Positions 482 to 8,188 of a DNA stretch of 8,188 nt are shown piece by piece; the stretch's first letter is position 1, and every line of letters begins with the position of its first letter. The notes below the pieces were generated by a model. The model worked only from the letters and a program-made list of their open reading frames with translations, was not told the DNA's origin and did no database searches. The DNA is from a virus (lineage: Duplodnaviria; Heunggongvirae; Uroviricota; Caudoviricetes). The stretch lies in the IMG/VR virus record IMGVR_UViG_2565956600_000003, one strand, 5' to 3'. Made by a program: the position numbers and the translations under genes.

Positions 482-1672
482 ATGAGTGACTATCATCACG
501 GCGTGCAGGTGCTGGAGATTAACGACGGCACACGCGTCATTTCCACCGTATCCACTGCCATTGTCGGCATGGTCTGCACGGCCAGCGATGCGGATGCGGA
601 AACCTTCCCCCTCAATAAACCGGTGCTGATTACCAATGTGCAGAGTGCAATTGCAAAGGCCGGTAAAAAAGGCACGCTGGCGGCATCGTTGCAGGCCATC
701 GCCGACCAGTCAAAACCGGTCACCGTTGTTGTGCGTGTGGAAGACGGCACCGGCGACGACGAAGAAACGAAACTCGCGCAGACCGTTTCCAATATCATCG
801 GCACCACCGACGAAAACGGTCAGTACACCGGACTAAAAGCCCTGATGGGCGCTGAGTCGGTTACCGGCGTTAAACCGCGTATTCTCGGCGTACCGGGACT
901 GGATACCAAAGAGGTGGCTGTTGCACTGGCATCAGTCTGTCAGAAGCTGCGCGCTTTCGGGTATATCAGCGCATGGGGCTGTAAAACCATTTCCGAGGTG
1001 AAAGCCTACCGCCAGAATTTCAGCCAGCGTGAACTGATGGTTATCTGGCCGGATTTCCTCGCATGGGATACGGCCACCAGTACCACCGCCACCGCGTATG
1101 CCACCGCCCGTGCGCTGGGTCTGCGTGCCAGAATCGACCAGGAGCAGGGCTGGCATAAAACGCTGTCCAACGTCGGGGTAAACGGTGTTACCGGCATCAG
1201 TGCCTCTGTATTCTGGGATTTGCAGGAGTCCGGCACCGATGCTGACCTGTTGAATGAGTCAGGTGTCACAACGCTGATTCGCCGTGACGGTTTCCGATTC
1301 TGGGGTAACCGTACCTGCTCTGATGACCCGCTGTTCCTCTTTGAAAACTACACCCGCACCGCGCAGGTGCTGGCCGACACGATGGCTGAGGCGCACATGT
1401 GGGCGGTGGACAAGCCCATCACCGCAACGCTGATTCGCGACATCGTTGACGGCATCAATGCCAAATTCCGTGAGCTGAAAACAAACGGCTATATCGTGGA
1501 TGCGACCTGCTGGTTCAGCGAAGAATCCAACGATGCGGAAACCCTTAAGGCCGGAAAACTGTATATCGACTACGACTATACCCCGGTGCCTCCTCTTGAA
1601 AACCTGACCCTGCGCCAGCGTATTACCGATAAATACCTGGCAAATCTGGTCACTTCGGTTAACAGCAATTAA
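482..1672 (+). CDS. FI: Contractile tail sheath protein (P2 gpFI family)
   Basis: 396-aa ORF with ATG start and SD-like GGAG upstream. Sequence and length match what I recall of P2 gpFI (MSDYHHGVQVLEIN...). Followed 12 nt later by the tube gene, as in P2. Confidence 0.95.
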   Translation: MSDYHHGVQVLEINDGTRVISTVSTAIVGMVCTASDADAETFPLNKPVLITNVQSAIAKAGKKGTLAASLQAIADQSKPVTVVVRVEDGTGDDEETKLAQTVSNIIGTTDENGQYTGLKALMGAESVTGVKPRILGVPGLDTKEVAVALASVCQKLRAFGYISAWGCKTISEVKAYRQNFSQRELMVIWPDFLAWDTATSTTATAYATARALGLRARIDQEQGWHKTLSNVGVNGVTGISASVFWDLQESGTDADLLNESGVTTLIRRDGFRFWGNRTCSDDPLFLFENYTRTAQVLADTMAEAHMWAVDKPITATLIRDIVDGINAKFRELKTNGYIVDATCWFSEESNDAETLKAGKLYIDYDYTPVPPLENLTLRQRITDKYLANLVTSVNSN

Positions 1673-1684
1673 GGAGCCTGACCG

Positions 1685-2203
1685 ATGGCAATGCCGCGCA
1701 AACTCAAGTTAATGAACGTCTTTCTGAACGGCTACAGCTATCAGGGCGTTGCAAAGTCCGTCACGCTGCCAAAACTGACCCGTAAGCTCGAAAACTATCG
1801 CGGTGCTGGGATGAACGGCAGCGCACCGGTAGACCTCGGCCTTGATGACGATGCGCTGTCAATGGAGTGGTCGCTCGGTGGCTTCCCGGATTCGGTTATC
1901 TGGGAGCTTTACGCCTCAACCGGTGTGGATGCCGTGCCGATTCGTTTTGCAGGCTCTTACCAGCGCGACGATACCGGCGAAACGGTGGCCGTCGAAGTGG
2001 TCATGCGTGGACGTCAGAAAGAAATCGACACCGGCGAGGGTAAACAGGGAGAAGACACCGAGTCGAAAATCTCCGTGGTCTGCACCTATTTCCGGCTGAC
2101 GATGGACGGTAAGGAGCTGGTCGAAATCGACACCATCAACATGATTGAGAAGGTGAACGGCGTCGACCGGCTGGAGCAACACCGCCGAAATATCGGCCTG
2201 TGA
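1685..2203 (+). CDS. FII: Tail tube protein (P2 gpFII family)
   Basis: 172-aa ORF. Strong SD AAGGAG at 1671-1676, overlapping the FI stop. Length and sequence are consistent with P2 gpFII. Synteny sheath then tube. Confidence 0.95.
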   Translation: MAMPRKLKLMNVFLNGYSYQGVAKSVTLPKLTRKLENYRGAGMNGSAPVDLGLDDDALSMEWSLGGFPDSVIWELYASTGVDAVPIRFAGSYQRDDTGETVAVEVVMRGRQKEIDTGEGKQGEDTESKISVVCTYFRLTMDGKELVEIDTINMIEKVNGVDRLEQHRRNIGL

Positions 2204-2259
2204 TTTTCATCCGGTCAGCCTGGCTGACCGGTTAACCCTGATTCAGAAGTGAGAAAACC

Positions 2260-2535
2260 ATGAACAAAGAAAATGTCATTACCCTGGAAAATCCGGTCAA
2301 GCGTGGTGAGCAGGTCATCGAACAGGTCACGCTGATGAAACCCAATGCCGGGACGCTGCGCGGTGTCAGTCTGGCAGCGGTCGCAAACTCCGAAGTTGAT
2401 GCACTAATTAAGGTGTTGCCGCGCATGACGGCACCGATGCTGACCGAGCAGGAAGTCGCCGCGCTGGAACTGCCTGACCTTGTGGCGCTGGCCGGTAAGG
2501 TGGTCGGTTTTTTGTCGCCGAACTCGGTGCAGTAA
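2260..2535 (+). CDS. E: Tail assembly chaperone gpE (zero-frame product)
   Basis: 91-aa ORF placed between the tube and tape-measure genes, as P2 gpE is. Contains the slippery run near its 3' end. Confidence 0.9.
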   Translation: MNKENVITLENPVKRGEQVIEQVTLMKPNAGTLRGVSLAAVANSEVDALIKVLPRMTAPMLTEQEVAALELPDLVALAGKVVGFLSPNSVQ

Positions 2536-2687
2536 CGTTCCCGAAAAATCTCTCGGTCGATGACCTGATGGCGGATGTGGCAGTGATATTTCACTGGCCG
2601 CCATCAGAACTGTATCCCATGAGCCTGACCGAACTCATCACATGGCGCGAAAAGGCGCTCCGGCGAAGCGGAAACACGAATGAGTAA
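2260..2687 (+). CDS. E+E': Tail assembly chaperone gpE+E', predicted product of a programmed -1 ribosomal frameshift
   Basis: Slippery heptamer T_TTT_TTG at 2508-2514 in the E frame. I translated the -1 frame from 2514 by hand: it is open for 57 codons (VAELGAVTFPKNLSVDDLMADVAVIFHWPPSELYPMSLTELITWREKALRRSGNTNE) and ends at TAA 2685-2687, overlapping the T start at 2680. Predicted fusion is about 142 aa, the size expected for P2 gpE+E'. Analogous to lambda G/GT. Confidence 0.75.
2508..2514 (+). other. Programmed -1 frameshift slippery site (T TTT TTG)
   Basis: Canonical X_XXY_YYZ heptamer in the E reading frame, positioned so that a -1 slip yields the long E' extension. Confidence 0.7.
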
Positions 2688-5127
2688 CAATGTAAAATTA
2701 CAGGTATTGCTCAGGGCTGTTGACCAGGCATCCCGCCCGTTTAAATCCATCCGCACAGCGAGTAAGTCGCTGTCGGGGGATATCCGGGAAACACAAAAAT
2801 CACTGCGCGAGCTGAACGGTCACGCATCCCGTATTGAGGGATTTCGCAAGACCAGTGCACAGCTTGCCGTGACTGGTCATGCACTTGAAAAGGCACGGCA
2901 GGAAGCTGAAGCCCTTGCCACACAGTTTAAAAATACCGAACGACCGACCCGTGCTCAGGTGAAAGTGCTGGAATCCGCAAAGCGTGCGACGGAGGACTTA
3001 CAGGCGAAATATAACCGCCTGACGGATTCCGTTAAACGCCAGCAGCGGGAACTGGCCGCTGTGGGAATTAATACCCGCAATCTTGCACATGATGAGCAGG
3101 GGCTGAAAAACCGTATCAGTGAAACCACCGCACAGCTTAATCGTCAGCGTGACGCGCTGGCGCGTGTCAGTGCGCAACAGGCAAAACTTAACGCAGTCAA
3201 ACAGCGTTATCAGGCAGGAAAGGAACTGGCCGGAAATATGGCCTCAGTGGGCGCTGCCGGTGTGGGGATTGCTGCTGCGGGAACGATGGCCGGAGTTAAG
3301 TTGCTGATGCCCGGTTATGAGTTTGCGCAGAAAAACTCAGAATTGCAGGCCGTGCTAGGTGTGGCAAAAGACTCCGCCGAAATGACCGCACTACGCAAAC
3401 AGGCGCGCCAGCTCGGCGACAATACCGCCGCCTCGGCGGATGATGCGGCCGGTGCACAGATAATCATCGCGAAAGCGGGTGGGGATGTTGATGCCATTCA
3501 GGCGGCAACGCCGGTCACGCTGAATATGGCGCTGGCGAACCGCCGCACGATGGAAGAAAACGCCGCCCTGCTGATGGGGATGAAATCCGCCTTTCAGCTT
3601 TCAAACGATAAGGTCGCTCATATCGGGGATGTTCTCTCCATGACGATGAACAAAACCGCCGCCGATTTTGACGGCATGAGCGATGCGCTGACCTATGCCG
3701 CACCTGTGGCAAAAAATGCCGGTGTCAGCATTGAAGAAACCGCCGCAATGGTCGGGGCGCTGCATGATGCAAAAATCACAGGCTCAATGGCGGGGACGGG
3801 AAGCCGTGCCGTGTTAAGCCGCCTGCAGGCACCGACGGGAAAAGCATGGGATGCACTCAAAGAGCTTGGTGTGAAAACCTCAGACAGTAAGGGAAACACC
3901 CGGCCAGTATTTACCATTCTGAAAGAAATGCAGGCCAGTTTTGAGAAAAACCGGCTCGGTACTGCCCAGCAGGCTGAATACATGAAAACCATTTTCGGGG
4001 AGGAGGCCAGCTCAGCCGCTGCTGTGCTGATGACTGCCGCCTCAACCGGAAAGCTGGACAAACTGACCGCTGCGTTTAAAGCCTCAGACGGGAAGACCGC
4101 AGAGCTGGTAAATATCATGCAGGACAACCTCGGCGGTGACTTTAAGGAGTTTCAGTCCGCTTATGAGGCGGTGGGGACTGACCTGTTTGACCAGCAGGAA
4201 GGCGCGCTGCGTAAGCTCACACAGACGGCCACAAAGTATGTGTTAAAACTCGACGGCTGGATCCAGAAAAACAAATCACTGGCGTCAACCATCGGCCTCA
4301 TTGTCGGTGGCGCGCTGGCGCTGACTGGCGTCATCGGTGCCATTGGCCTCGTAGCCTGGCCGGTTATCACCGGCATCAATGCCATCATCGCGGCAGCAGG
4401 CGCAATGGGGGCAATTTTCACGACGGTTGGCAGTGCCGTTATGACGGCCATCGGGGCGATTAGCTGGCCGGTAGTGGCCGTGGTGGCCGCCATTGTCGCC
4501 GGAGCGTTACTTATCCGTAAATACTGGGGGCCTGTCAGCGCATTCTTTGGCGGTGTGGTGGAAGGGCTGAAAGCGGCATTTGCGCCGGTGGGGGAACTGT
4601 TCACGCCACTGAAGCCGGTGTTTGACTGGCTGGGCGAAAAGTTACAGGCCGCGTGGCAGTGGTTTAAAAACCTGATTGCCCCGGTTAAAGCCACCCAGGA
4701 CACCCTGAACCGTTGCCGTGACACGGGCGTCATGTTCGGGCAGGCACTGGCTGACGCGTTGATGCTGCCGCTTAATGCGTTCAACAAACTGCGCAGTGGT
4801 ATTGACTGGGTACTGGAAAAACTCGGTGTTATCAACAAAGAGTCAGACACACTTGACCAGACCGCCGCAAGGACTCATGCCGCCACGTATGGCACCGGTG
4901 GTTATATTCCGGCGACCAGCTCTTATGCAGGCTATCAGGCTTATCAGCCGGTCACGGCACCGGCTGGCCGCTCTTATGTAGACCAGAGTAAAAACGAATA
5001 TCACATCAGCCTGACGGGTGGTACTGCGCCGGGGACACCGCTTGACCGCCAGTTACAGGATGCGCTCGAAAAATACGAGCGGGATAAACGTGCGCGCGCC
5101 CGTGCCAGCATGATGCATGACGGTTAA
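2680..5127 (+). CDS. T: Tail tape measure protein (P2 gpT family)
   Basis: 815-aa ORF. N-terminal region is coiled-coil-like (Q/R/K/A/L-rich); the central part has long Gly/Ala/Ile/Val-rich hydrophobic segments typical of tape-measure proteins. Follows the frameshift chaperone pair, as in P2. Confidence 0.95.
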   Translation: MSNNVKLQVLLRAVDQASRPFKSIRTASKSLSGDIRETQKSLRELNGHASRIEGFRKTSAQLAVTGHALEKARQEAEALATQFKNTERPTRAQVKVLESAKRATEDLQAKYNRLTDSVKRQQRELAAVGINTRNLAHDEQGLKNRISETTAQLNRQRDALARVSAQQAKLNAVKQRYQAGKELAGNMASVGAAGVGIAAAGTMAGVKLLMPGYEFAQKNSELQAVLGVAKDSAEMTALRKQARQLGDNTAASADDAAGAQIIIAKAGGDVDAIQAATPVTLNMALANRRTMEENAALLMGMKSAFQLSNDKVAHIGDVLSMTMNKTAADFDGMSDALTYAAPVAKNAGVSIEETAAMVGALHDAKITGSMAGTGSRAVLSRLQAPTGKAWDALKELGVKTSDSKGNTRPVFTILKEMQASFEKNRLGTAQQAEYMKTIFGEEASSAAAVLMTAASTGKLDKLTAAFKASDGKTAELVNIMQDNLGGDFKEFQSAYEAVGTDLFDQQEGALRKLTQTATKYVLKLDGWIQKNKSLASTIGLIVGGALALTGVIGAIGLVAWPVITGINAIIAAAGAMGAIFTTVGSAVMTAIGAISWPVVAVVAAIVAGALLIRKYWGPVSAFFGGVVEGLKAAFAPVGELFTPLKPVFDWLGEKLQAAWQWFKNLIAPVKATQDTLNRCRDTGVMFGQALADALMLPLNAFNKLRSGIDWVLEKLGVINKESDTLDQTAARTHAATYGTGGYIPATSSYAGYQAYQPVTAPAGRSYVDQSKNEYHISLTGGTAPGTPLDRQLQDALEKYERDKRARARASMMHDG

Positions 5128-5141
5128 GGAGGTGACGAAAA

Positions 5142-5621
5142 ATGATGCTCGCGTTAGGTATGTTTGTTTTTATGCGCCAGACGCTGCCACACCAGACCAT
5201 GCAGCGTGAATCAGATTATCGCTGGCCGTCAAATTCCCGTATCGGTAAACGGGATGCCTACCAGTTTCTCGGTGTGGGTGAGGAAAACATGACGCTTGCC
5301 GGCGTGCTTTATCCCGAACTGACCGGCGGGAAGCTGACGATGACCACGCTCAGGCTGATGGCAGAGGAAGGCCGGGCGTGGCCGTTGCTGGATGGCACCG
5401 GCATGATTTACGGCATGTATGTCATCAGCAGGGTGAGTGAAACAGGGAGTATTTTCTTTGCAGACGGCACACCCCGGAAAATTGATTTTACGCTGTCGCT
5501 CACCCGTGTTGATGAATCACTGGCCGCGCTTTATGGCGATATCGGTAAACAGGCGGAATCGCTCATCGGTAAGGCTGGCAGTATGGCGGCTAAATTCACG
5601 GGTATGACGGGGGCGGAATAA
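5142..5621 (+). CDS. U: Tail protein gpU (P2 gpU family; tail completion / tube-initiator-like)
   Basis: 159-aa ORF. Strong SD AGGAGGTG at 5128-5135. Its stop overlaps the D start (TAATG at 5619-5623). Length and position match P2 gpU. Confidence 0.9.
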   Translation: MMLALGMFVFMRQTLPHQTMQRESDYRWPSNSRIGKRDAYQFLGVGEENMTLAGVLYPELTGGKLTMTTLRLMAEEGRAWPLLDGTGMIYGMYVISRVSETGSIFFADGTPRKIDFTLSLTRVDESLAALYGDIGKQAESLIGKAGSMAAKFTGMTGAE

Positions 5622-6784
5622 TGCTGGATGCGCGGACATTTGATGCAGGCAGTACGCTGACGCCGGATTACATGCTGATGCTCGACAGCAGGGATATTAC
5701 CGGCAATATCAGCGACCGTCTGATGAGCATGACCCTGACGGATAACCGGGGCTTTGAGGCTGATCAGCTTGATATTGAACTGAACGATGCCGACGGGCAG
5801 GTCGGGCTGCCGATTCGTGGCGCTATCCTGACGGTGTATATCGGCTGGAAAGGTTTTGCCCTTGTATGCAAAGGGAAATTTACCGTTGATGAGGTTGAAC
5901 ACCGGGGCGCGCCGGATGTGGTCACCATCCGCGCCCGGAGTGCAGATTTTCGCGGGACGCTCAATTCCCGCCGTGAAGGCTCCTGGCATGACACCACGCT
6001 CGGTGCGATTGTTGAGGCAATAGCCTCCCGTAACAAGCTGGAAGCCAGTGTCGCTCCGCCACTGGCCGGAATTAAAATCCCGCACATCGACCAGTCGCAG
6101 GAGTCCGATGCGAAATTCCTGACCCGTCTTGCTGAACGCAACGGCGGTGAGGTGTCGGTAAAAATGGGAAAACTGTTGTTTCTCAAAGCGGGGCAGGGGG
6201 TGACGGCCAGCGGTAAGAAAATCCCGCAGGTCACCATCACCCGCAGCGACGGCGACCGTCATTATTTTGCGATTGCTGACCGTGGAGCCTACACCGGCGT
6301 AACGGCAAAGTGGTTACACACCAAAGACCCGAAGCCGCAAAAGCAGAAGGTAAAACTGAAACGCAAAAAGAAAGAGAAACACCTGCGCGCACTGGAGCAC
6401 CCGAAAGCGAAACCGGTCACGCAGAAGAAAGCACCAAAAGTACCGGAAGCGCGCGAAGGTGAATACATGGCCGGTGAGGCTGACAACGTTTTTGCCCTGA
6501 CCACGGTATATGCCACGAAAGCGCAGGCAATGCGCGCCGCTCAGGCGAAGTGGGACAAACTGCAACGGGGCGTTGCGGAGTTCTCCATCAGCCTTGCCAC
6601 TGGTCGGGCTGATATTTACACGGAAACGCCGGTCAGAGTGTCAGGCTTTAAGCGCGTCATAGACGAGCAGGACTGGACAGTCACTAAGGTGACACATTTT
6701 CTGAATAATAGCGGCTTCACGACGTCCCTGGAGCTTGAGGTCAGGCTTTCTGATGTGGAGTACGAAACAGAAGATGATGAGTGA
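5621..6784 (+). CDS. D: Tail protein gpD (P2 late control gene D family; baseplate hub-like)
   Basis: 387-aa ORF, the same length as P2 gpD. Translationally coupled to U. Contains a Lys/Pro-rich low-complexity segment at about aa 235-276. Confidence 0.9.
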   Translation: MLDARTFDAGSTLTPDYMLMLDSRDITGNISDRLMSMTLTDNRGFEADQLDIELNDADGQVGLPIRGAILTVYIGWKGFALVCKGKFTVDEVEHRGAPDVVTIRARSADFRGTLNSRREGSWHDTTLGAIVEAIASRNKLEASVAPPLAGIKIPHIDQSQESDAKFLTRLAERNGGEVSVKMGKLLFLKAGQGVTASGKKIPQVTITRSDGDRHYFAIADRGAYTGVTAKWLHTKDPKPQKQKVKLKRKKKEKHLRALEHPKAKPVTQKKAPKVPEAREGEYMAGEADNVFALTTVYATKAQAMRAAQAKWDKLQRGVAEFSISLATGRADIYTETPVRVSGFKRVIDEQDWTVTKVTHFLNNSGFTTSLELEVRLSDVEYETEDDE

Positions 6785-6864: not shown

Positions 6865-7083
6865 ATGTTTCATTGTCCTTTATGCCAGCATGCCGCACAT
6901 GCGCGTACAAGCCGCTATATCACTGACACGACAAAAGAGCGTTATCACCAGTGTCAGAACGTGAATTGCAGCGCCACGTTCATCACTTATGAGTCGGTAC
7001 AGCGATACATCGTGAAGCCGGGAGAAGTCCACGCCGTGAGGCCGCACCCGTTGCCGTCAGGGCAGCAAATTATGTGGATGTAA
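6865..7083 (+). CDS. ogr: Ogr, zinc-finger transcriptional activator of late genes
   Basis: 72-aa product MFHCPLCQHAAHARTSRYITDTTKERYHQCQNVNC... with the Cys-X2-Cys-X22-Cys-X4-Cys zinc-binding pattern of P2 Ogr. SD AAGAGG at 6851-6856. The track ORF starting at 6781 is a GTG-initiated upstream extension that I do not accept. Confidence 0.9.
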   Translation: MFHCPLCQHAAHARTSRYITDTTKERYHQCQNVNCSATFITYESVQRYIVKPGEVHAVRPHPLPSGQQIMWM

Positions 7084-7094
7084 TTACAAACAGG

Positions 7095-7120
7095 AAGCCC
7101 CTCAGTCGAGGGGCTTTTTT
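7095..7120 (+). terminator. Intrinsic terminator after ogr (end of late transcription)
   Basis: Hairpin AAGCCCCTC-agtc-GAGGGGCTT (7095-7116) running into TTTTTT (7115-7120), 12 nt after the ogr stop. Confidence 0.8.
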
Positions 7121-7183
7121 GTCGATGTGGTCAATGTGTGGACGTGACCAGAAATAAATCCTTTTATTTCATGTAATTAGATA

Positions 7184-7210
7184 TTAAAAAATGTCACCAA
7201 TAACTGACAT
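7184..7210 (-). pseudogene. pflA: pflA 5' remnant: native start codon plus 5 codons fused to phage sequence, in-frame stop after 8 codons
   Basis: The minus strand reads ATG TCA GTT ATT GGT GAC ATT TTT TAA (MSVIGDIF*). PflA, as I recall it, begins MSVIGRIHSFESCG..., so the first 15 nt match and the sequence then diverges into AT-rich phage DNA. Confidence 0.6.
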
Positions 7211-7330
7211 TGCGGTGTTTCTCCAGATGTGGCCCATCTGAGGCCGTGTTGGTGCGCAGCTCGAAGGCTACGTCGAGTCTGTTTTGGCAGTCACCTTAAA
7301 GTATAGATAGCTGACAAAAAAGGCTCTCGT
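7211..7330 (-). promoter_or_regulatory. Host pflB-pflA intergenic region (expected to carry the pflA promoter and RBS)
   Basis: Located between the pflB terminator and the pflA start codon on the minus strand. No specific -35/-10 assignment was made. Confidence 0.4.
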
Positions 7331-7333
7331 GCT

Positions 7334-7359
7334 AAAAAAGGCCCCACTTTCGTGGAGCC
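7334..7359 (-). terminator. Intrinsic terminator downstream of pflB
   Basis: On the minus strand: GGCTCCAC-gaaa-GTGGGGCC (8-bp stem with one G-U pair, GAAA tetraloop) followed by TTTTTT. A second T-run follows about 12 nt later. Confidence 0.7.
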
Positions 7360-7401
7360 TTTATTGTACGCTTTTTACTGTACGATTTCAGTCAAATCTA
7401 A

Positions 7402-8188
7402 TTACATAGATTGAGTGAAGGTACGAGTAATAACGTCCTGCTGCTGTTCTTTAGTCAGCGAGTTGAAACGTACTGCGTAGCCAGATACACGGATGGTCAG
7501 CTGCGGATATTTTTCCGGGTTTTCCATCGCGTCGAGCAGCATTTCACGGTTCATCACGTTAACGTTCAGGTGCTGACCACCTTCGATGGATGCTTCGTGG
7601 TGGAAGTAACCATCCATCAGACCAGCCAGGTTGGTCTTACGAACTTCGTCGTCTTTACCCAGTGCGTTCGGAACGATAGAGAAGGTGTAGGAGATACCAT
7701 CTTTAGCGTAAGCAAACGGCAGTTTAGCAACGGAAGTCAGAGACGCTACAGCACCTTTCTGGTCACGACCGTGCATCGGGTTAGCACCCGGTCCGAACGG
7801 CGCGCCAGCACGACGACCGTCTGGGGTGTTACCAGTTTTCTTACCATACACAACGTTAGAAGTGATGGTCAGAACAGACTGAGTCGGGATAGCGTCACGG
7901 TAGGTGTGCAGTTTCTGAATTTTCTTCATGAAACGTTCTACCAGGTCAACAGCCAGGTCATCTACACGCGGATCATTGTTACCAAACTGCGGGTATTCGC
8001 CTTCGATTTCGAAGTCGATAGCCAGACCGTCTTCGTCACGAATCGGTTTAACTTTCGCATATTTGATTGCAGACAGGGAGTCAGCAGCAACGGACAGACC
8101 AGCGATACCACACGCCATGGTGCGGATAACGTCACGGTCGTGCAGCGCCATCAGAGAGGCTTCGTAGCTGTACTTGTCGTGCATGTAG
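7402..8188 (-). CDS. pflB: Pyruvate formate-lyase (formate C-acetyltransferase), C-terminal 261 codons; 5' end outside the window
   Basis: Translation ends ...[33 protein letters not shown], the glycyl-radical motif (RVSGY, Gly codon at 7480-7482) and C-terminus of E. coli-type PflB. The frame is open to the window edge. A close paralogue such as TdcE is less likely given the adjacent pflA start. Confidence 0.9.

Follow-up and report, generated by a model that had tools for sequence, protein, structure and literature searches.

The stretch of DNA analysed here (the window; 8,188 nt of the IMG/VR record IMGVR_UViG_2565956600_000003) carries the right arm of a P2-type prophage, which ends with the late-gene activator gene ogr, next to the 3' part of the host gene pflB and its terminator (Table 1). 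Between ogr and pflB, positions 7184-7330 form the right-hand junction (attR) of this P2-family prophage, which lies inside pflA. PflA activates pyruvate formate-lyase, the enzyme at the center of mixed-acid fermentation, as well as TdcE and GrcA.

Table 1. Features of the window on both sides of the right-hand prophage junction.
Feature	Position	Strand	Basis and remarks
P2-type tail/late genes (sheath, tube, E/E', tape measure, U, D), prophage right arm	482..6784	+	ORFs; same order in APEC O78
ogr (72 aa), late-gene activator; final gene at the right end of the prophage	6865..7083	+	Pfam Ogr_Delta, E 1e-21; annotated ogrK in matching genomes
GC-rich 9-bp hairpin	7095..7122	.	T-run on + (ogr terminator), imperfect T-tract on -
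Direct repeats GACCACA and GTCCACA, P' arm	7126..7142	-	Candidate arm-type Int binding sites, 11-bp spacing
Orphaned pflA start	7184..7210	-	Native ATG (7210-7208), 4 pflA codons, 3 phage codons, stop
att core	7196..7208	.	GTCAGTTATTGGT (pflA sense), 13 nt, G of ATG through pflA codon 5
Retained native pflA upstream region (SD GGAG, 5' UTR, promoter region)	7209..7330	-	Match to the BL21 locus, 1 SNP
pflB intrinsic terminator	7331..7362	-	Hairpin 7337-7362, 11-bp stem, then U-run; dG -18.5 kcal/mol, z -5.0
pflB 3' part (formate C-acetyltransferase)	7402..8188	-	ORF 7402-8184; annotated pflB in all matching genomes

The prophage has the gene order of the P2 family (Peduovirus), running sheath-tube-E-T-U-D-ogr up to att and int-C-cox-B-A beyond it, and encodes both the Ogr and the Cox regulators; the Pfam domains detected in it are Ogr_Delta, Phage_Cox, HTH, Int_N, and Phage_integrase. 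It matches Peduovirus records at the DNA level at 98-99 per cent, and the record of classical P2 is absent among the close DNA matches. Like P2 and Wphi, it has the layout D, ogr, attP, int, C, cox, with int directed toward attL, an integrase composed of Int_N and Phage_integrase domains, and paired direct repeats in both att arms, but its Int is only about 55 per cent identical to those of P2 and Wphi. Of the attachment sites described for P2, such as locI and locH, none is known to be in pflA. Free phages with this integrase have been isolated on Yersinia pestis EV76 and on Escherichia coli, and some prophage-derived records bear the name 'Peduovirus P2' despite an integrase that is not of the classical P2 type.

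At attR, the minus strand from 7210 to 7184 reads ATG TCA GTT ATT GGT GAC ATT TTT TAA, that is, MSVIGDIF followed by a stop, in agreement with a preliminary description of this DNA, according to which the native pflA start yields only an 8-codon peptide here. Positions 7209-7401 differ from the unoccupied pflB-pflA intergenic region of E. coli BL21(DE3) by a single SNP, and identity to the host continues through the GGT codon to position 7196, from which the sequence is that of the phage. The junction of ogr with pflB (at least 80 per cent query coverage) recurs in 403 of 5,426 complete E. coli genomes and is therefore not a chance resemblance.

To define the att sites, we compared the window with attB of BL21, attP of the free Yersinia phage vB_YpM_46, and attL and attR of the APEC O78 lysogen (locus L001). 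In pflA sense, attB reads ..ACCGCAAT-GTCAGTTATTGGT-CGCATT.. and attP reads ..GCTACCAA-GTCAGTTATTGGT-GACATT..; attR combines the host left flank with the phage right flank, and attL the phage left flank with the host right flank. The two prophage junctions are thus reciprocal hybrids of attP and attB with a common 13-nt core and exactly swapped flanks, as in Campbell-type integration. Because the core begins at the G of the pflA start codon, the A and T of this codon belong to the host only and stay at attR. The preliminary description had taken a 15-nt identity to suggest that the core contains the pflA start; the identity measures 13 nt and excludes the 'AT' of the start codon.

The host DNA retained at attR includes the native upstream region of pflA, whose promoter is separate from that of focA-pflB (PMC12338860). 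Promoter scans of this region returned a single weak -10-like hexamer, TATACT, at 7305-7300, and did not map the exact position of the pflA promoter.

The left-hand junction lies outside the window, about 32 kb from the native pflA upstream region, and was inspected in complete genomes. In APEC O78, int (331 aa) is located on the pflA strand, and its TAA stop codon precedes an ATG in phage DNA by 31 nt. From this ATG, the P arm of the phage supplies 18 further codons and an AAG (Lys) at the position of the native ATG, where the sequence is ACC AAG TCA, in frame with pflA codon 2. The resulting frame encodes MSNLTNCNTTENTATAGATK, continues with SVIGRIHSFES, and extends to the usual pflA stop, giving a product of 265 aa, as compared to 246 aa for native PflA of BL21. 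RefSeq annotates pflA of APEC O78 at the same length of 265 aa; the ORF has complete Radical_SAM and Fer4_12 domains and no internal stop, and the predicted N-terminal tryptic peptide of its product is SNLTNCNTTENTATAGATK. The pflA ORF at attL owes its reconstruction solely to an in-frame ATG and 19 codons that the phage arm supplies. The DNA upstream of the core is purely phage in the four-way comparison, in which no duplicated host promoter was found at attL. The arrangement is accordingly one of promoter replacement, with the native upstream region at attR and an intact ORF at attL that has no host sequence above the core. As the preliminary description had anticipated, pflA is cut off from its native promoter and persists at attL as an intact ORF that lacks this promoter; its expectation that the native gene would be regenerated does not apply, as the ORF starts from a phage ATG and encodes 265 aa. 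Nor does the phage arm carry a copy of the displaced end of the gene: the left flanks of attP (..GCTACCAA) and attB (..ACCGCAAT) are unrelated, and the leader has no counterpart in native pflA.

In the free phage vB_YpM_46 (L002, positions 1943-2026), the leader ORF crosses attP as a 27-codon ORF (MSNLTNCNTTENTATAGATKSVIGDIF*), and integration divides this ORF into the leader of PflA and the tail of the 8-codon remnant at attR.

The leader ATG is preceded by a weak Shine-Dalgarno match (GAAG or AGAG). Two other starts were considered for the rebuilt gene and rejected. A start codon within the core is ruled out by the AAG at attL, and reading of the sequence from this AAG revealed no in-frame ATG, GTG, or TTG before M32. 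This next in-frame Met of PflA lies beyond Cys30, the first cysteine of the CX3CX2C motif (C30, C34, and C37), so a product initiated there would lack a cluster ligand and could not be active.

The same-length leader is not peculiar to the APEC O78 lysogen. We scanned one genome per bacterial species for the integrase, which yielded six loci with a full flank; having been found through Int, these loci were not selected for an open frame. In all six, pflA directly follows int (76-100 per cent identity of Int) and begins with an in-frame leader whose length is the same as in APEC O78: MSNLTNCNTTENTAAAGATK-SVIGR in E. albertii (Int 100 per cent), MSNLNTCNLTENTDAPGAVK-PVIGR in Scandinavium manionii and S. 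lactucae, MSNLNTCNLTENTDATGAVK-PVIGR in Pseudescherichia vulneris, MSNLTSCNLKENTDNSEVAK-PVIGR in Scandinavium hiltneri (Int 80 per cent in these four), and MSNLTDCISTESTTESGGH-MSVQGR in Rahnella ecdela (Int 76 per cent). A second E. coli type, represented by strain S42 and found in 11 genomes, has an Int of 86 per cent identity that is likewise followed by in-frame leader-pflA, with the leader MSNLNHCNTTENPAASGATK. Leaders of divergent sequence and the same in-frame length are present in Klebsiella, E. albertii, Scandinavium, Pseudescherichia, Rahnella, and Citrobacter, and more variants were recovered from Salmonella, Citrobacter, and metagenomes, several of them through protein databases, which report open frames only. 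The offset of the GRIHS motif is identical in all variants despite heavy amino-acid divergence.

These variants bear directly on the version put forward in the preliminary description, in which the core includes the ATG, attL regenerates the native 246-aa PflA, and the phage provides transcription only. The Rahnella arm, which supplies GGGGGACAT-ATG at the native start position, and the protein P0004, which has the same or an equivalent sequence, would allow a PflA of native length in those cases. The E. coli type, to which the window belongs, has AAG at this position, which refutes that version for this phage type, and AAG, or GTG in one case, also occupies the position in the variants from Klebsiella, Scandinavium, Salmonella, Citrobacter, and loci L012, L016, and L019. 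We therefore regard regeneration of the native protein as extremely improbable. P0004 was also considered as a candidate from Pectobacterium and rejected, as its N-terminus is not Pectobacterium-like.

In all 13 DNA sequences of leaders, stops are absent from the pflA frame and number one to five in each of the other frames; under composition-preserving shuffling, the chance of an open pflA frame is 0.13-0.32 per leader sequence. Indels are present in the 31-35 nt before the leader ATG, and there are none inside the 60-nt leader, although its second half is highly diverged. In active phages, the absence of indels could reflect the arm-to-core spacing needed for recombination rather than coding. 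Codons 1-7 of the leader (MSNL..C) are conserved at the DNA level, whereas residues 8-20 are not conserved, the rest of the leader after codon 7 being polar, rich in small residues, and variable. Because of this lack of conservation, the leader is probably a spacer rather than a functional peptide. PflA N-termini of extended length also occur outside the prophage context: locus L013 (positions 1175-1459) is an ordinary pflB-pflA locus whose PflA has a native Thr/Ser/Pro-rich N-terminal extension of about 17-20 residues, as do proteins P0127, P0132, and P0036. Such extensions, found in Providencia and other taxa, indicate that the N-terminal length of PflA varies naturally, and N-terminally tagged PFL-AE has been purified (PMC10267522).

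The int-pflA junction (attL) is found in 405 of the 5,426 complete E. coli genomes, which corresponds to an insertion frequency of 7.5 per cent. A query consisting of the phage arm and leader likewise gave 405 genomes, with one match per genome (388 of them at least 99 per cent identical), and every match listed lies under the annotations pflA and integrase. At least 1,000 contigs encode the exact 265-aa fusion protein, and 336 contigs encode a Klebsiella pneumoniae version, in which the E. coli-type leader is attached to Klebsiella's own PflA body. A few records labeled as plasmids (CP088669.1, NZ_CP148399.1, NZ_CP148584.1, and NZ_CP134387.1; 73-730 kb, non-mobilizable) also carry the int-pflA junction; these records, with pflA beside the integrase, are probably mislabeled chromosomal pieces.

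Leader-pflA also occurs without a prophage, as a fossil junction, in three Salmonella genomes and at loci L016-L018 and L019/L020. In Salmonella enterica (L011, positions 2456-4002; L014 and L015, positions 3470-5000), focA-pflB and its terminator are followed by a SopD-family gene on the other strand, about 250 bp of a decayed int 3' end with stops, the P arm, and leader-pflA. The native pflA ATG is absent from these three loci, and no E. coli-like pflA upstream region was found in them after the pflB terminator. At L016-L018, the pflB terminator is followed by about 150 nt, an int remnant, and leader-pflA, and at L019/L020, the place of pflB before leader-pflA is taken by a GntP-family permease gene, which suggests either a rearrangement or cargo at the fossil site. 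In four fossil loci, C and Pc are absent and the leader is immediately preceded by a decayed int 3' end of about 215-270 bp, with similarly placed left boundaries of the int homology. Since these fossils lack C and Pc, the C-int operon is not required to express leader-pflA, and read-through from Pc cannot be a universal mechanism.

At the fossil loci, the phage-derived start is the only pflA start present. Such loci are the strongest indirect support for the predicted functional fusion, even though they were found through protein databases that report open frames only, so that the set is biased toward intact examples. The Salmonella arrangement is known from three genomes and from partial-protein clusters; an exact look-up of the reconstructed Salmonella protein identified it as a rare allele on 3 contigs, and the 90 per cent cluster (6,565) is uninformative on Salmonella because it mixes the 246-aa and 265-aa forms. 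An islet with a SopD-family effector gene, which we take to be sopD2 (STM0972, between pflB and pflA in strain LT2), appears to occupy the fossil attL of this phage family. A literature search for a connection of sopD2 with pflA or pflB returned nothing relevant.

Could the insertion simply inactivate pflA, with the open leader frame arising as a coincidence of annotation pipelines? Insertion does remove the native promoter, Shine-Dalgarno sequence, and ATG, the Shine-Dalgarno sequence of the leader is weak, and there is a described case of pflA disruption: ECA29, a prophage of Pectobacterium atrosepticum that we take to be of the P2 family. A review (PMC13492144, citing Evans et al. 2010, FEMS Microbiol Lett 304:195) lists ECA29 as disrupting pflA. 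ECA29 resembles the prophage described here in residing in pflA of an enterobacterium and differs from it in being presented as a disruption of the gene. However, insertional disruption would leave no intact target ORF at either junction, and attL carries the 265-aa ORF with a full-length pflA body in APEC O78. Moreover, all lineages examined, among them those identified by Int only, share an open frame of one length, the exact fusion is present on at least 1,000 contigs and the insertion in 7.5 per cent of complete E. coli genomes, and the fossils keep leader-pflA in the absence of the native ATG. We thus consider simple disruption very unlikely.

The explanation that we favor, and consider probable on the strength of these sequence comparisons, is that a P2-family (Peduovirus) prophage recombined within pflA codons 1-5 and that its arm rebuilds the gene as a 265-aa PflA. 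Under this explanation, Int would recombine at the 13-bp core and would thereby strand the native upstream region, the Shine-Dalgarno sequence, and the ATG at attR. The fusion would be translated from the phage ATG into a presumably active PflA, and transcription of pflA would start in phage DNA, either by read-through from Pc through C and int or at a promoter in the int 3' end or the P arm. With the ATG, the leader, and transcription all coming from phage DNA, the phage would repair the gene that it interrupts and at the same time replace the transcription and translation signals of that gene. The sequence-level claims are secure, and the view that the chimera is functional is well supported, but indirectly.

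The arrangement around attL is compatible with read-through. The preliminary description had int pointing in the same direction as pflA; the two genes are on the same strand, with the repressor gene (C) upstream of int, and a scan of the coding strand across C, int, and the interval up to pflA detected no terminator-like site. The hairpin downstream of ogr, for which a bidirectional stop had been proposed, exists and is predicted to be stable on both strands. Its stem-loop (7095-7116) has a folding energy of -21.7 kcal/mol on the plus strand (z -4.7) and -19.1 kcal/mol on the minus strand (z -4.4), and 0 of 200 shuffled sequences fold as well. It is followed by U6 on the plus strand and by an interrupted tract, CCUGUUUGUA, on the minus strand, which has the int and pflA sense and on which the hairpin passes a simple terminator scan (7116..7095). 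The hairpin starts 79 nt past the att core, and the same hairpin is present in attP of vB_YpM_46. In the free phage, the hairpin lies downstream of int on the other side of attP, and no other terminator-like structure comes before it; after integration, the orphaned pflA start points toward it. Integration moves the hairpin to attR, and int-sense transcription would consequently be free to run into pflA. The geometry of the read-through proposed in the preliminary description is thus supported by these predictions. Any transcript that starts in the pflA upstream region left at attR would have its 8-codon ORF translated and would then run into this hairpin.

A similar relocation is known from the sib element of lambda, an RNA structure downstream of int that extends across attP and is moved away from int by integration. 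As with sib, int-sense transcripts of the phage and of the prophage would differ in their 3' ends. Unlike sib, the element relocated here resembles a plain bidirectional intrinsic terminator that is common to ogr, and it implies no RNase III processing.

Alternatively, leader-pflA may be transcribed independently of Pc-C-int from a dedicated phage promoter in the int 3' end or the P arm. This reading, which is compatible with the explanation favored above and differs from that of the preliminary description only in the origin of the transcript, is possible, although we would not rate it at quite even chances. It is consistent with the retention of about 215-270 bp of int 3' end before the leader in the four fossils that have neither C nor Pc, and with the position of the L016 remnant downstream of the pflB terminator, which places the promoter required at that locus within about 350 bp upstream of the leader. 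Weak promoter-like sites occur at about -69..-40 from the leader ATG (TTAACC-16-CATAAT in E. coli, TAAACC-18-TATAAT in Rahnella, and TGAACC-18-TATCAT in L016), and further ones recur at about -209..-179. Moreover, in HK022, a promoter in phage DNA at attL drives torS without the int promoter. Yet promoter consensus scans upstream of the leader found no strong conserved site: the best candidates agree with the consensus at no more than 9 of 12 positions, no sigma-70-like site is conserved in every lineage, and candidate sites are no more numerous than in shuffled sequence. The fossils could also have gained new promoters after the decay of the prophage. For the pflA transcript, an origin in C-int read-through and an origin at an int-3'-end or P-arm promoter are about equally likely.

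The closest known mechanism is that of phage HK022 at torS, where the junction lies 73 bp from the int stop (Carey et al. 2019, eLife 8:e49081; PMC6814406). There, too, integration beside int parts an anaerobic-metabolism gene from its native promoter and leaves a usable ORF; a phage-side promoter downstream of int has been shown by experiment, and many wild E. coli carry prophages at this site. HK022 is lambdoid, whereas the pflA prophage is P2-type, and the crossover at pflA falls inside the coding sequence, unlike that at torS. HK022 replaces the promoter only, whereas at pflA the Shine-Dalgarno sequence and the start codon appear to be replaced as well and a 19-residue leader is predicted to be added. 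The pflA junction therefore extends the replacement of control signals into the coding sequence.

Phages that integrate into tRNA genes or into icd (phage 21 and e14) carry a copy homologous to the displaced 3' end of the gene, and the gene keeps its native promoter. The pflA prophage is like them in that phage sequence restores the interrupted gene, so that the host would keep the function. It is unlike them in that the phage sequence substituted for the 5' end of pflA has no homology to it, and in that pflA loses its native control region. In a literature search that covered few subscription journals, we found no description of an attachment site in E. coli pflA or of a chimeric PflA, and the pro147 paper does not mention an att site.

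If the favored explanation is correct, about 1 in 13 E. coli genomes, including those of O157:H7, APEC, and clinical isolates, make an N-terminally extended PflA from phage-derived signals, and the locus provides a second, more invasive case of the HK022/torS type, in which not only the promoter but also coding sequence is exchanged. Attachment of a phage at the 5' end of a useful gene could then leave the function of that gene intact, and curing or inducing the prophage would alter the control region of pflA. The 265-aa annotations of PflA are probably correct rather than start-site errors, and the available data suggest that reports of prophage-'disrupted' pflA, including ECA29, merit re-reading. 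The fossil sites indicate that host genes can permanently retain 5' ends acquired from phages.

A broader reading, to which we assign even chances, is that this P2-type lineage carries inside attP a portable 'gene-repair cassette' consisting of a start codon, a 19-codon spacer, and probably an int-3'-end promoter. Many Klebsiella and 7.5 per cent of complete E. coli genomes would then make a chimeric PflA from phage signals. In at least two further taxa and in the three Salmonella genomes, the cassette would have outlived the prophage and would now form the 5' end of pflA. In that event, the phage would have repeatedly rewired the control of pyruvate formate-lyase activase.

The att arms contain a further repeated motif. 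GWCCAYA, to which the direct repeats in Table 1 belong, occurs four times in the 2.9-kb attP locus of vB_YpM_46, on a single strand and as one pair per arm with 11-bp spacing (L002, positions 1893-1910 and 2067-2084); 1.1 occurrences are expected, and 4 of 200 shuffled sequences reach four, for a pattern chosen post hoc. Since the pair in the P arm overlaps the candidate -10 element, Int could modulate pflA. The APEC O78 prophage has two annotated pseudogenes, for head completion and for the baseplate (L001, positions 22251-22733 and 26123-26929), and some copies at the pflA site are therefore defective, with no exit by lytic growth.
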